64,000 nucleotides of DNA from the NCBI GenBank assembly GCA_963677895.2, contig CAXXGJ010000038.1, forward strand, positions 96,001-160,000, given 5' to 3'. Position numbers and translations under genes: made by a program. The stretch comes from Treponemataceae bacterium (lineage in GTDB: Bacteria; Spirochaetota; Spirochaetia; Treponematales; Rectinemataceae). The stretch's first letter is position 1. Every line of letters begins with the position of its first letter. Under the pieces are notes generated by a model. The model had not been told where the DNA came from. It worked only from the letters and a program-made list of their open reading frames with translations, and did no database searches. Positions 3,456-7,901 of this stretch are shown here, piece by piece.

Positions 3456-3528
3456 CGGGACGTAGCCTAGGGGCTAAGGCGTCTGCTTTGGGAGCAGAAG
3501 ATCGGAGGTTCAAATCCTCTCGTCCCGA
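3456..3528 (+). tRNA. tRNA-Pro(TGG)
   Basis: Acceptor CGGGACG/CGTCCCG, anticodon arm TCTGC-TT TGG GA-GCAGA, T loop TTCAAAT; CCA not encoded. Confidence 0.95.
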
Positions 3529-3550
3529 CTACGTACCTTTAAAGTCGATT

Positions 3551-3624
3551 GGGATCATAGCTCAACTGGATAGAGCAACTGCCTTCTAAGCAGTAGGTCG
3601 GGGGTTCGAGCCCCTCTGGTCCCA
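3551..3624 (+). tRNA. tRNA-Arg(TCT)
   Basis: Acceptor GGGATCA/TGGTCCC, anticodon arm ACTGC-CT TCT AA-GCAGT, GTTCGA. Confidence 0.95.
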
Positions 3625-3748
3625 TCTTTCCCTCCTCCTTTTTGATACACATCCATCCGCCGATGAGCTTCTCCCGCATTACCAAACCCGGGGTTCAATC
3701 TATACAGTGTAATCAATATGTTTCGCTAAAATTTTATTGTAAAGTTGA

Positions 3749-3892: not shown

Positions 3893-5758
3893 ATGCAGGA
3901 AAACGAAAAAAAAGGAATCAGCCGCAGGGAGTTCGTAAAGCTTGTCGGAACCGGAGCGGCGGTTGTGGCCGGAGCCACGATAGTTCAGCCCTTGGCCGCG
4001 GATACCGGCAAAGTCGCTGATGCGAAAACCGTTAAGCCGACGCCCGCCGATCTGCCCAGGAAATGGGATCTGGAGGCCGATGTCGTGGTGCTAGGTGCCG
4101 GTGCCGTCGGACTTCCGGCCGCGATCAGGGCCGCCAAAGCCGGCGCTTCCGTCATCATCGTCGAAGCGAACTATGATATCGGCGGTCACGCTATCATCTC
4201 TGGCGGTAACGTTCCCCTTGGCGGCGGAACCAGCTTCCAGAAGAAATATGGCATAAATGACGATGCCGAAACGCTGTTCCGCGATCTTACGGACTGGTCG
4301 GTGGTGGAGGTGAGCGGCATGCCCGATTACCGCTACAACGACAGGGCCGTGCAGCGGGCCTTGGCCGACAATGAAGCCCAGACCTTCGAGTTCCTCCTCG
4401 CCCAGGGCGTCCCCTTTGTGGACAAAAGCCCCGACAATTCCGGCGGACATGCCGTGGGTGTATCCGCGAAACGCGAGCACCATTGCGTATGGACCAAGGG
4501 ACAGAACGCCGAGAGTCCAGCCGGAGCCGGCGGCACGACCCTCATGCGCGCCCTCGAAGACAGCGCCAGGAAAGCGGGCGTGAAGTTCCTGCTCAACTAC
4601 CACATGAACACCATCTACCGCGAACATCCGGATTCCGGCAGGGTATTGGGCATCCAGGCCAACTATACCCCGACCCTTCTTCCGGGATCCCTGTCCCCGC
4701 TTCCGAGTTTCAGGTCCGACGGCAATCTGGGCCTGGACCTCGCCGAAGTGACGATCAAAGCCAAGAAAGCCGTCATCATCGGTACCGGCGGAAGCACGGG
4801 CCATGTCAATTTCCGCAGGATGTTCGATTCGAGGCTGACCGAGGAAATGCCGTTGGCCGGAGGCGAATATTCGCCCCAGGACGCATCGGGCGAGCTCGCC
4901 GCCATGGCTATCGGCGCGACCCTCTGGGGAACCGCGAACCAGACCTTAGACAGGAACGGCGCTCTCAGAAAACGCCCGATCATCGGCACCAGGACCAATT
5001 ATGTCGGATGGAAGAAAGAATCCCCTCTCTTCCCGAAAGTGAAAGCCACGGGACTGAACGTCCGCAGCTGGCAGGACGCCATCATCGTCAATCAGGTAGG
5101 CAAGCGCTTCTACAATGAGATGGAAGACGGCTATCCGAACGGAACGACAGAGGGATACCTGAAGCCGTACGTCCAGGGCGATTGGCGCAACGCGCAGAAC
5201 GCCAAATTTGCCCCGATGAACTATCCTGACGCCGCTCTCGCCATCAACGAGGGCTCCACGGCTCCGGATTACTCCGCTGGTCCCCAGTGGGCCATCTTCG
5301 ACGCGGCGGCGGTGAAGCGCGAAAAGTGGGTCATAGACGGAACCAGCGTTCATCCCGACTATTTCTTCAGCGCGCCCACCCTTGCCGAACTCGCTGCCAA
5401 GATCGAAGCCTGCCCCTATCAGAAAGTGAAGATGCCCGCGGGTAACCTCGAGGCGACGGTCGCCGAATACAATAAGGCGGTGGACCTCGGCGTGGACGAG
5501 GCTTTCGACAAGCCGAAGCCCCAGTACAAGATAGTAGAGGGACCTTTCTACGCGGCCTGGGCCACGATCACCGTACACGATACCTATGCCGGCCTGAGAA
5601 TCAACCAGGAATGCCAGGTCATGAACATGGACGGCGAGGTGATTCCCGGCCTGTACTGCGGCGGCGAATCCGCGGCCGGATGCAGCCAGCACGGCCTGGC
5701 CCGCTGCCTTACCCAAGGGTATATCGCGGGAGCCGTTGCCGCAAAAGAGTCTGTATAA
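3893..5758 (+). CDS. Tat-exported FAD-binding oxidoreductase (flavocytochrome c/fumarate reductase/KstD superfamily flavin subunit), substrate unknown
   Basis: Twin-arginine SRREFVK plus hydrophobic stretch and LAA cleavage site; DVVVLGAGAVG FAD fold; GGHAIISGG; GKRFYNE; GPFYAA; GLYCGGE; GAGGGAG RBS. Confidence 0.88.
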   Translation: MQENEKKGISRREFVKLVGTGAAVVAGATIVQPLAADTGKVADAKTVKPTPADLPRKWDLEADVVVLGAGAVGLPAAIRAAKAGASVIIVEANYDIGGHAIISGGNVPLGGGTSFQKKYGINDDAETLFRDLTDWSVVEVSGMPDYRYNDRAVQRALADNEAQTFEFLLAQGVPFVDKSPDNSGGHAVGVSAKREHHCVWTKGQNAESPAGAGGTTLMRALEDSARKAGVKFLLNYHMNTIYREHPDSGRVLGIQANYTPTLLPGSLSPLPSFRSDGNLGLDLAEVTIKAKKAVIIGTGGSTGHVNFRRMFDSRLTEEMPLAGGEYSPQDASGELAAMAIGATLWGTANQTLDRNGALRKRPIIGTRTNYVGWKKESPLFPKVKATGLNVRSWQDAIIVNQVGKRFYNEMEDGYPNGTTEGYLKPYVQGDWRNAQNAKFAPMNYPDAALAINEGSTAPDYSAGPQWAIFDAAAVKREKWVIDGTSVHPDYFFSAPTLAELAAKIEACPYQKVKMPAGNLEATVAEYNKAVDLGVDEAFDKPKPQYKIVEGPFYAAWATITVHDTYAGLRINQECQVMNMDGEVIPGLYCGGESAAGCSQHGLARCLTQGYIAGAVAAKESV

Positions 5759-5890: not shown

Positions 5891-6418
5891 ATGTTTTTCA
5901 ATGAAAAAACAATGCGGAACTGCGCGATTGCCGTGGCCGTTTCGCTCTCGGCCGTAATGTTCGGCTATGCTTCATCGGACATACGATCGGATACGGGATT
6001 CGTTTACGATTCCGGCATCCAGTCGATTCAGGTCCAGACCACGCCGACCACGGTACAGCCGGCCGACGCCACGAGCGGGGCCAGCGAGGCGGCGGAAGAG
6101 CCCGCTTCGGATGCCGTTTCGAGCGCCACCGATGAAAACGCCGTCAAGGATTCAGCTTATTGCCTGAAATGCCACGGTCCGTTCGAGAAACTCGCGGAGA
6201 GAACGGCGGATTATGTGACGGAGTGGGATGAAAAAGCGAATCCCCATGTATATGTGCCGCATGAATCGAAGACTATCGTGGATTGCGTGGAGTGCCATAC
6301 TCCGCATGATGTACCGTTCAAGGCCGATGAGGGCGCAGCCAAGCCGAATGTCAATTACTGCTATTCCTGCCATCACGCCGAGACGCTCGTCAACTGTAAT
6401 ACCTGCCATAACGAATAG
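5891..6418 (+). CDS. Secreted tetraheme cytochrome c (c3-like) with flavinylation-type motifs in its linker
   Basis: Signal peptide; CLKCH, CVECH, CYSCH, CNTCH and four extra His (119, 124, 139, 162); linker DATSGAS and DAVSSAT. Confidence 0.88.
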   Translation: MFFNEKTMRNCAIAVAVSLSAVMFGYASSDIRSDTGFVYDSGIQSIQVQTTPTTVQPADATSGASEAAEEPASDAVSSATDENAVKDSAYCLKCHGPFEKLAERTADYVTEWDEKANPHVYVPHESKTIVDCVECHTPHDVPFKADEGAAKPNVNYCYSCHHAETLVNCNTCHNE

Positions 6419-6429
6419 GCGATAAAATT

Positions 6430-6475
6430 GAATAGCGGGGAAGCGGCTCGATGCCTTCCGCTTTTTCCGCTATTC
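6430..6475. terminator. Hairpin between the convergent cytochrome gene and tatB
   Basis: GAATAGCGGGGAAGCGG pairs with CCGCTTTTTCCGCTATTC. Confidence 0.55.
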
Positions 6476-6802
6476 TCTTTGGCTTTCTTCCGCTAGTTTA
6501 TCCAGTTCTTCCTGCGTAGGCTCAGCCTTGGAAGGGTTTTCCGGTGACGGAGAGACTTGAGGGGCCGCCTCGGTTTTCTTGTCTTCAGCCTTCTGGTTGT
6601 CGGAATCCTGTACAGCCGCGGTTATATCCATCTGCCTCATGAAATCGTCTTTGACGGCGGTGATTTCCTTGAATATCTTTTTAGCCTGCGCGTAATAATG
6701 ACCAAGTTTCCTGAAAAAAGCCGGCAGATCATCGGGACGTATGACGATCATGATCAGGAGAACGATAATGGCTAATTCCGAAAAACCTATGCCGAACATC
6801 AT
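6470..6802 (-). CDS. tatB: Twin-arginine translocase TatB
   Basis: MFGIGFSEL, N-terminal TM, PDDLP, amphipathic helix, charged tail; ATGA overlap with the tatC stop. Confidence 0.85.
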   Translation of the reverse strand: MMFGIGFSELAIIVLLIMIVIRPDDLPAFFRKLGHYYAQAKKIFKEITAVKDDFMRQMDITAAVQDSDNQKAEDKKTEAAPQVSPSPENPSKAEPTQEELDKLAEESQRE

Positions 6803-7548
6803 TTTTCTCCGAATTTGAAAATCTTCGCGATCAGAAGAGCGAGAAAATAGAGGACGGTCAGGGGAATAGCGACCCCCAGCTGGCTTATGAAATCGGGGGG
6901 CGTGATGATCGCGGACGCGATGAATATCGCCACTATTATGAAACGGCTCGCCTTTAGTACCGATTTGCGTTTCAAAATATTCAGCATGAGAAGAACTTCC
7001 ATGAGGAGCGGCGTCTGGAGAGCGAGCACGGACCAGAGAATGAAGGAGAACACATAGAAGATATTCGCCTGATAATTGAGAAGATAACCGACGTTTTTTG
7101 GAATGAAGTAGGGATTCGTCAGGAAGCTGATGGCGAGAGGGACGATCCTGAAGTAGGCGAGATAAGCCCCGAACACGATCAGGACGAGACTGGAGAATAA
7201 AGTCCAGAGGATCACCCGCTGATGGCGTTTTTCCACTCCCGGAAAGACGAAACGCAGAAGGTTGAAAATATGGACGGGAGACGAAAGGATAAGGCCGGCA
7301 TAGACGGCGATCTTCATCTGTGAGGAGAAACCTTCGATGATAGTCGTCACCACGAGCTTGCTTTCCACGGCGCTGGATACGGCGTTGAACTGCCTGGTGA
7401 ATATGCCGATTATTTTATCCGAAAAAACAAACGACGCGATGGCGCATGCGAGAAAAGAACCCATGGATATGAATATGAGCTTGCGCAGTTCCCTTACATG
7501 CTCGATGAAGGGCATAACCTTGCCGGGATTTTTCACGTCTGCTGTCAT
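6799..7548 (-). CDS. tatC: Twin-arginine translocase TatC (alternative start 7599)
   Basis: MPFIEHVRELR, FVFPG, IITPPDFISQ; multiple TM segments. Confidence 0.92.
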   Translation of the reverse strand: MTADVKNPGKVMPFIEHVRELRKLIFISMGSFLACAIASFVFSDKIIGIFTRQFNAVSSAVESKLVVTTIIEGFSSQMKIAVYAGLILSSPVHIFNLLRFVFPGVEKRHQRVILWTLFSSLVLIVFGAYLAYFRIVPLAISFLTNPYFIPKNVGYLLNYQANIFYVFSFILWSVLALQTPLLMEVLLMLNILKRKSVLKASRFIIVAIFIASAIITPPDFISQLGVAIPLTVLYFLALLIAKIFKFGEK

Positions 7549-7570
7549 AGTCTTCTCGAGGTCAGAGGTT

Positions 7571-7762
7571 TCAGACTTTTGAATCTTTCTTGCCTTCATC
7601 TTTTCCGGAACCTGTCTCCTGCGCGCTTTCCCCGTCTTTCATCGCCTTGGAGAATTCCTTCTTGGCTTCGCCGAGCGAGCGGGCGAACTTGGGAATGGCG
7701 CTGGCCCCGAAAAGCACCAATATGACCGCCACGATTACGATTATTTCCGTCGTTCCTATCAT
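7571..7762 (-). CDS. tatA: Twin-arginine translocase TatA
   Basis: MIGTTEIIVI...LVLFGASAIPKFARSLGEAKKEF; AAGGAG RBS before ATG 7762. Confidence 0.92.
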   Translation of the reverse strand: MIGTTEIIVIVAVILVLFGASAIPKFARSLGEAKKEFSKAMKDGESAQETGSGKDEGKKDSKV

Positions 7763-7901
7763 GATAAAACTCCTTACAATGAAACAGAAAATGCATCGAT
7801 CCGGTGTCGTCCCGCGAAATCGACATGAACCGCGGACCTCGCCGAAGACAGTACATTTCATACTTATCGGTAGGCTATGTCAACACGTATTCGACGTCTT
7901 T

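Follow-up and report, generated by a model that had tools for sequence, protein, structure and literature searches.

The strict consensus for flavinylation by ApbE is D-x-x-[ST]-G-A-[ST], with seven residues being the minimal length of such a flavin tag (PMC12052999). Exchange of the Gly for Ala keeps about half of the labelling, exchange of the Asp for Ala has a minor effect, and Ser is a 10-55% poorer flavin acceptor than Thr (PMC12052999). A 12-residue tag is fully labelled at either terminus in E. coli (PMC9400968). In Trypanosoma FRDg it is Ser9 of DGRSSAS that acts as the acceptor, nine residues alone not being enough, and the motif of the kinetoplastid enzymes is given as Dxx(s/t)(s/g)AS, that is with S allowed at position 5 (10.1101/2020.12.30.424822). 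The treponemal enzyme Ftp adds flavin to periplasmic proteins and is to some extent species-selective (PMC4436053).

Meheust et al. (2021, PMC8238504) describe FMN_bind and PF14537 domains as able to replace one another in feeding fumarate-reductase-like enzymes, an FMN domain in the FMN_bind-fused Listeria FrdA and Shewanella UrdA, or a tetrahaem domain in the PF14537-fused FccA, linking the FAD reductase to the membrane chain. In the part of that survey available here, FMN_bind together with multihaem is predicted only for a multi-flavinylated RnfG of Christensenellales (PMC8238504). Bare tags are known from FMN_red (PF03358) and Flavodoxin_4 (PF12682) proteins, the flavinylation of which was shown by mutants (Huang et al. 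2024, PMC11334425). A structured FMN site is found in the membrane subunit RnfD of Clostridium tetanomorphum, where Thr153 is reported to be FMN-linked in a cryo-EM study that saw no RnfD flavin signal on SDS-PAGE (PMC9588780). Finally, in the split flavocytochromes c (Mrd/Mcc of Geobacter sulfurreducens AM-1, FccA of Wolinella) the gene of a Tat-signal FAD subunit is followed by that of a Sec-signal multihaem cytochrome (PMC4427408).

The locus described here is from a Treponemataceae bacterium (Rectinemataceae; GCA_963677895.2) and lies in a window, that is the whole stretch of DNA that was analysed, of 64,000 nt (contig CAXXGJ010000038.1, positions 96,001-160,000). It encodes a tetrahaem cytochrome c with two flavinylation-like heptamers in its linker, here called tag 1 and tag 2, next to a FAD enzyme. 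The reading favoured, to which a probability of roughly 0.6 is given, is that ApbE hangs one or two FMNs on this linker arm, where they would act as an electron port.

The cytochrome, its neighbours and known systems

The features of the locus are as follows.

3893..5758, + strand: Tat-signal FAD_binding_2 flavoprotein, 621 aa, no CxxCH (PF00890, E 2.9e-37; SRREFVK)
5891..6418, + strand: tetrahaem cytochrome c gene, 175 aa (PF14537, E 2.3e-8)
5891..5971, + strand: predicted N-terminal Sec-type signal or membrane anchor, about residues 1-27 (AF2 helix 5-22)
6020..6037, + strand: conserved PxxLxQ-like element ending at Q49, before tag 1
6065..6085, + strand: tag 1, DATSGAS, residues 59-65, strict ApbE consensus, predicted acceptor S65 (6083-6085)
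6110..6130, + strand: tag 2, DAVSSAT, residues 74-80, variant, predicted acceptor T80 (6128-6130)
6152..6415, + strand: haem domain, four CxxCH (first Cys C91) and four invariant distal His
6470..6802, - strand: tatB-like gene, convergent (PF02416, E 0.0074, below cut-off)
6799..7599, - strand: tatC (PF00902, E 1.9e-46)
7571..7861, - strand: tatA, given as the listed ORF, whose real start probably lies further in (PF02416, E 6.4e-14)

The cytochrome ORF, with GGGAG preceding its ATG, is the sole one in the assembly with at least three CxxCH, and in a class-level sample the count was 2 of 301 genomes, the source genome included. Export is suggested by its hydrophobic N-terminal helix together with the CxxCH motifs, a crude regex picks up a lipobox-like Cys in 21 of the 63 near homologues, and for attaching haem the source genome encodes ResB/CcsA. 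Eight His are invariant in the near homologues, the four proximal ones plus 119, 124, 139 and 162, a pattern in line with bis-His haems, as the earlier note had claimed for the tetrahaem domain. In the PxxLxQ-like element Q49 is kept by 93% of the 61 alignment rows, and position 47 is L in 74%; a related LVMQxSW stretch occurs in tag-less spirochaete cytochromes, and PxxLxQ is possibly a processing or assembly signal.

An AF2 model built from the 61-row alignment has a mean pLDDT of 58.6, with residues 28-81 below 50, and the linker with both tags is thus predicted to be disordered or flexible; the model does not pack the tags onto the haem domain. The only structural match of the haem domain is a weak one, to that of flavocytochrome c3 1qo8 (Z 2.6, rmsd 3.7, 69 aligned). 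Foldseek with the low-confidence model gave no match, a PDB sequence search with the 61-row alignment (A1) nothing under E 0.08, and the ESM Atlas generic multihaem clusters alone (scores 0.88-0.91). PF04205 (FMN_bind) is absent from the cytochrome at E up to 1, and the protein is not among the nine FMN_bind matches of the source genome. Longer fused forms were not seen among 7,993 scored candidates, which is weak evidence.

The flavoprotein gene ends 132 bases upstream on the same strand, and such a gene adjoins the cytochrome gene, tagged or tag-less, in 19 of 21 loci (L010-L030). It cannot be assigned to a named enzyme, since it reaches no NCBIfam cut-off among the 25 models shown (146 bits for TIGR01813 against a cut-off of 285), its best PDB sequence match is a ketosteroid dehydrogenase, and when aligned to 1q9i (Fcc3) it keeps the C-terminal His but has Gln in place of the Arg counted as 544, two residues which we take to be the substrate ligands of Fcc3. 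In 5 of the 21 loci tatC lies next to the flavoprotein-cytochrome pair. Just upstream of the flavoprotein gene are tRNA-Pro(tgg) and tRNA-Arg(tct) (window 3456-3626), and upstream of the pair a scan of the + strand for promoters and terminators found nothing. Elsewhere in the genome a Tat-signal C_GCAxxG_C_C protein with two CxxCH is encoded directly upstream of resB/ccsA (L087:157-972, + strand, equal to G000:C25:180156-180974).

Traits of the split flavocytochromes are present, with a haem-less Tat FAD_binding_2 gene next to a multihaem gene at the locus, distal His in the cytochrome, and a maturation system in the genome. The locus differs in its tags, which go unmentioned in the available part of the published account of the split systems (PMC4427408), and in its partner, which reaches no family cut-off and which, set beside fumarate reductase FccA, matches the His ligand whilst the Arg ligand is replaced by Gln. 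Like both the FMN_red and the Flavodoxin_4 proteins (PMC11334425), the cytochrome lacks an FMN_bind domain and bears one or two motifs on an extension or insertion that is unstructured; in those proteins, however, the FMN is modelled into their own ancestral flavin site, whereas the host here is a c-type multihaem domain in which no such site is evident. FMN_bind proteins (PF04205) fold a domain around the motif, whereas the tags of the cytochrome lie in the region that AF2 renders disordered. In FrdA and UrdA as against FccA the FMN and haem modules are alternatives (PMC8238504), but in the window cytochrome both would be in series, with the FMN module cut down to seven residues. The predicted RnfG of Christensenellales shares with it the prediction of covalent FMN alongside c-type haems in a single chain, but has folded FMN_bind domains inside the Rnf complex rather than a reductase partner, and is itself a prediction (PMC8238504).

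The literature search found no paper with bare tags on a multihaem cytochrome, with the proviso that the large tables of two survey papers could list such proteins, and the available part of Little et al. (10.1101/2022.12.26.521950) has nothing on a tag-plus-multihaem architecture. Bare tags and split flavocytochromes are each known; their combination was not found in print. The cytochrome would work like an ApbE substrate fused to the haem subunit of a split flavocytochrome, and is not an FMN_bind protein.

Conservation of the two tags

Both motifs lie where the earlier note had placed them, 15 residues apart between the hydrophobic N-terminal helix and the first CxxCH. Tag 1 fits the strict heptamer, whereas tag 2, with S at position 5, does not, fitting instead the variant heptamer types of verified sites (kinetoplastid FRDg; 7ZC6 RnfD). 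When residues 26-90 were shuffled 200,000 times, 0.42% of the outcomes contained one strict motif and 0.033% a pair of Dxx[ST][GAS]A[ST] motifs.

The near homologue search gave 65 proteins, the named ones being from Rectinemataceae and other spirochaetes, or 66 with the query, and motif counts use the 64 that have an N-terminus of at least 30 aa before the first CxxCH, these being relatives and not independent samples. The relaxed motif [DE]xx[ST][GAS]A[ST] is found in 63 of the 64, against a mean of 3.13 and a maximum of 12 in 500 composition-preserving shuffles, and 44 have two or more copies. A D-type copy is present in 51 (shuffle mean 1.14) and the strict motif in 21 (shuffle mean 0.22, maximum 2), again over 500 shuffles. 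Across the columns of alignment A1 (61 rows), the frequency of the commonest residue averages 0.81 and 0.77 for the two tags and 0.75 for the haem domain, but 0.39 for the rest of the linker; A79 is invariant and S77 reaches 97% in the columns of tag 2. The expectation in the earlier note of motifs that hold whilst the linker drifts is therefore borne out.

The last acceptor mostly stands 11 residues before the first haem Cys (Cys91; range 9-24), whilst the copy number runs from 1 to 4 and the spacing from first to last copy from 7 to 43 residues (58 rows). It was the second motif (SSAT) that had been thought the less certain, yet it is better supported than that, since it is the copy that keeps an almost constant distance to haem 1, and the doubt is weakened further as trypanosome FRDg is flavinylated at a site with S at position 5 and residues other than G dominate the RnfD site of the family. 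Among 128 copies in the family the commonest heptamers are DATSAAT (22) and EAVSSAS (14), neither of which has the consensus Gly. There are 47 copies that start with E, and the 12 with P at position 6 (DATSAP variants) may be dead tags.

A distant set of 135 homologues, found by exhaustive search alone, includes 124 with a usable N-terminus, and of these none has the strict motif and only two, both hexahaem variants, the relaxed one, leaving 122 tag-less; where a distant homologue has a long linker rich in T/A/S/P, as 41 of them do, the motif is missing in every case. A FastTree built from 191 haem domains groups the near, tag-bearing sequences into a single clade of 65 tips (support 0.97), and its two tag-less members are N-terminal fragments. 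Given this difference between near and distant homologues and the drift of the remaining linker, the alignments indicate that the linker tags are under selection. The arm is evidently dispensable elsewhere, as nearly all distant homologues do without a tag and motif-less cytochromes adjoin the same type of flavoprotein.

The heptamer as a probable flavinylation site

Since the commonest heptamers of the cytochromes lack the consensus Gly, the FMN site of RnfD from the same family was used as an internal control. From 30 family loci 28 proteins could be parsed and 26 gave a site, all of the form DA[VATLI][ST][ATGMS]AT, with position 5 being A in 12, T in 11 and G in one, that is non-G in 25 of 26. 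The site aligns with DGVTTAT of C. tetanomorphum RnfD (7ZC6), the last T of which is Thr153 by counting. DATSAAT itself stands at the RnfD site in four family proteins, one from a same-genus genome, whilst the RnfD of the source genome carries DALSTAT, and 21 of 63 cytochromes have a heptamer that is letter-identical to some RnfD site of the family. The heptamer of the RnfD/NqrB site (PMC9588780) is of the same type, and in this spirochaete family often of the same letters; it is structured and part of a membrane subunit, however, whereas the cytochrome tag is on a free arm. In three RnfDs (L217, L219, L221) the heptamer is triplicated in a loop.

The presence of apbE in the genome, which the earlier note had left to be checked, is confirmed (G000:C2:182619-183455, PF02424 E 8e-93), on a contig other than that of the cytochrome. 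ApbE is found in 14 of 14 distinct spirochaete genomes tested (29 entries, five duplicates). It is found as well in 6 of the 10 genomes from outside the spirochaetes, whose cytochromes are motif-less, and a match is present in 62 of 69 family genomes, so that its co-occurrence with the cytochrome does not discriminate. Co-localisation of apbE with the gene of its substrate has been a criterion in both surveys (PMC8238504; PMC11334425). No apbE was found near motif-bearing loci, in the genome loci L010-L018 and 40 metagenome loci, many of them short. The one locus with apbE in the cluster is in Treponema (L027:5915-15804), where flavoprotein, cytochrome, resB, ccsA, tatB, tatC, apbE, ubiD, ubiA and ubiX lie together; its cytochrome is tag-less and the apbE is there without an obvious substrate.

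The family genomes without an ApbE match were considered as a natural experiment and set aside: there are 7 of 69, yet all 7 have an RnfD/NqrB match, and for this reason the absences are possibly assembly gaps. The tag of a TPR protein described below is absent in five ApbE-negative genomes and also in four ApbE-positive congeners, which is uninformative, and one ApbE-negative genome (79% complete) has it. Overall, it is predicted with good confidence that at least one FMN is carried by the tags of the cytochrome, and the chances are about even that both S65 and T80 carry one.

The same heptamer on other proteins

The tag is not specific to the tetrahaem cytochrome but is a family-wide device, found also on a protein without an evident redox role. 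A second small tetrahaem cytochrome, unrelated to the first, is encoded directly downstream of another FAD enzyme gene (L047:1462-1836, - strand; L048:1345-1791, + strand), and DATSAAS or DVTSAAS stands three residues past the likely signal cleavage site in P0204-P0207 and L048; the homologue P0208 (52% identical) is tag-less and P0209 is without such an N-terminus. A lipoprotein with a partial Oxidored_molyb match and one invariant CVSCH (L240:152-1636, - strand, equal to G000:C2:64548-66035) has a bare tag before its folded part in 15 of 17 complete N-termini, and is a candidate for the second protein of the source genome with FMN plus haem.

An Ndh2-like protein (L259:5528-7534, - strand, equal to G000:C2:253524-255533), with a DoxX-like C-terminal membrane domain, adjoins a polyprenyl synthase and has a loop of tandem tag-like repeats. 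D/E-type copies occur in 8 of 8 loops displayed, out of 16 loci, but the loop of the source genome has D-less copies only (AATSAAS repeats). The C-terminal part of this protein is matched in 16 of 16 spirochaete genomes and in none of 10 others tested. An exported TPR protein (L084:281-1849, - strand, equal to G000:C22:23577-25238), present in 66 of 69 family genomes, has a low-complexity tail that ends in DATSGATE; a subclade retains this tag, with 15 carriers among the 30 closest homologues and 4 among the 30 that follow, and the protein has no evident redox role or cofactor. A C-terminal tag is also found on a lipoprotein without Pfam match (L167).

Some further carriers were noticed. DAVTSAT lies inside the domain of an exported nitroreductase-family protein (L085:628-1278, - strand, equal to G000:C6:272124-272774), which by its sequence is a candidate covalent-FMN nitroreductase. 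DAKSSAT follows shortly past the lipobox of an NrfA-like (PF02335) lipoprotein (L083:1219-2607, - strand), and DAT[ST]GAS is near the N-terminus of an exported spirochaete protein of about 238 aa (L160, L182, L183, L188, L204), of which the L182 copy is without Pfam match.

Across the source genome DA[VTAIL][ST][AGST]A[ST] gives 7 matches in 6 proteins, all with a hydrophobic N-terminus, such proteins making up 31% of residues, against 0 matches in the 687,394 residues of the others. This pattern was picked after the motifs were known, two of the 7 matches are those of the query cytochrome, and the scan used a rough set of 2,824 ORFs from our own hexamer model, which dropped at least one real RnfG-like gene. 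Strict matches, conserved ones, are also found in cytosolic PspA, and others in EF-P and FtsH, so conservation of the heptamer letters is by itself no proof of modification. Counts of DNA patterns over the 69 family genomes were discarded as evidence, the loose pattern being near its reversed control and the strict one, in 44 of 69 genomes, giving many matches that are PspA or out of frame.

Proposed mechanism and alternatives

In the favoured reading the cytochrome would be an exported tetrahaem protein whose tags are flavinylated by the genome's own ApbE, giving an FMN phosphoester at T80, near haem 1, and probably at S65. On the predicted flexible arm the FMNs would pass electrons to or from a redox partner in the membrane, and the chain of haems would likely serve the neighbouring Tat-signal FAD enzyme. 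Haem-to-FAD transfer may proceed as in the split flavocytochromes c, a sound inference since the flavoprotein flanks the cytochrome in nearly all of the loci, as in Mrd/Mcc. Four other FAD-enzyme lipoproteins of the source genome use FMN_bind domains, and the arm could be a domain-less stand-in for the FMN_bind domain of these FAD_binding_2 lipoproteins.

The donor is the most speculative step and a guess, with an Ndh2-like NADH dehydrogenase or an Rnf complex as candidates. An electron route through Ndh2 is known in Listeria. The source genome has no match to NapC/NirT, so the usual link from quinol to cytochrome is not evident; for menaquinone it has no MqnA/D and no MenD match, and there is one UbiA with ubiD/ubiX neighbours. 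It does encode two Rnf/Nqr-type clusters, two Fer4_5 membrane proteins, a DUF4405 protein and Ndh2. Taken as a whole, the reading in the earlier note is partly supported.

It could instead be that ApbE does attach FMN but that this lies off the electron path, the tags making a periplasmic flavin store, a redox buffer or a docking handle on many exported proteins. The tags on the TPR tail and at the C-terminus of the L167 lipoprotein would suit this, as would the free variation in copy number and spacing and the occurrence of motif-less orthologous cytochrome-flavoprotein pairs. Most carriers, however, are redox proteins (the two cytochrome scaffolds, the hexahaem variants, Mo-domain proteins, nitroreductase, Ndh2 and RnfD), and the near-fixed distance between the last tag and the haem domain also speaks against it; this explanation is rated unlikely. 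A chance match in a low-complexity linker, for which it might be said that some shuffled linkers do yield a single strict match and that 19 six-frame ORFs of the genome have one, is already refuted by the conservation data, in which the motif far exceeds its shuffled frequency and conservation in the tag columns is on a par with that of the haem domain.

In exported proteins a low-complexity linker of S/T/A/P is a typical place for glycosylation, and the heptamers could be O-glycosylation sequons whose likeness to the ApbE motif is incidental. The linker is of this kind, and the DATSAP variants, the D-less AATSAAS repeats of the Ndh2 loop and two sub-cut-off Wzy_C (PF04932) matches in the source genome would fit; a search with Wzy_C_2 (PF11846) gave no match there, and its control was silent everywhere too. 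The letter identity with the RnfD FMN site argues against glycosylation, as does the conservation of D/E at position 1, A at 6 and S/T at 7, as in ApbE targets, and the source genome (assembly 92.8% complete) has no match to PMT (PF02366), for which the control was positive in 6 of 14; the explanation is accordingly rated improbable. Much the same low standing is given to the heptamers being unmodified short linear motifs that dock the flavoprotein, a chaperone or a protease, perhaps tied to the PxxLxQ element. That second conserved element of the linker has no resemblance to ApbE sites, and cytosolic PspA keeps the same letters for other reasons; against this, the scaffolds that bear the tag are unrelated, differ in their partners and have it at one terminus or the other, and the AF2 model leaves it unpacked.

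Implications

A wider reading, which is tentative and thought rather doubtful, is that periplasmic wiring in the family relies on bare FMN tags, seven residues long, borne by floppy arms on proteins of unrelated kinds. The swinging flavins would pass electrons from an NADH dehydrogenase or Rnf directly to haem chains, replacing quinol dehydrogenases and FMN_bind domains, and would be invisible to domain-based surveys. The carriers in such a scheme may be the two tetrahaem scaffolds, the hexahaem variants, the Mo-domain monohaem lipoprotein, the Ndh2 loop, extra RnfD copies and the TPR protein.

The range of ApbE substrates would then be undercounted, because surveys based on domains miss bare tags. 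If the favoured reading of the cytochrome is true, FMN and haems placed in series by means of a peptide tag alone would be a novel way of arranging cofactors, with the engineered flavin-tag as its man-made counterpart.
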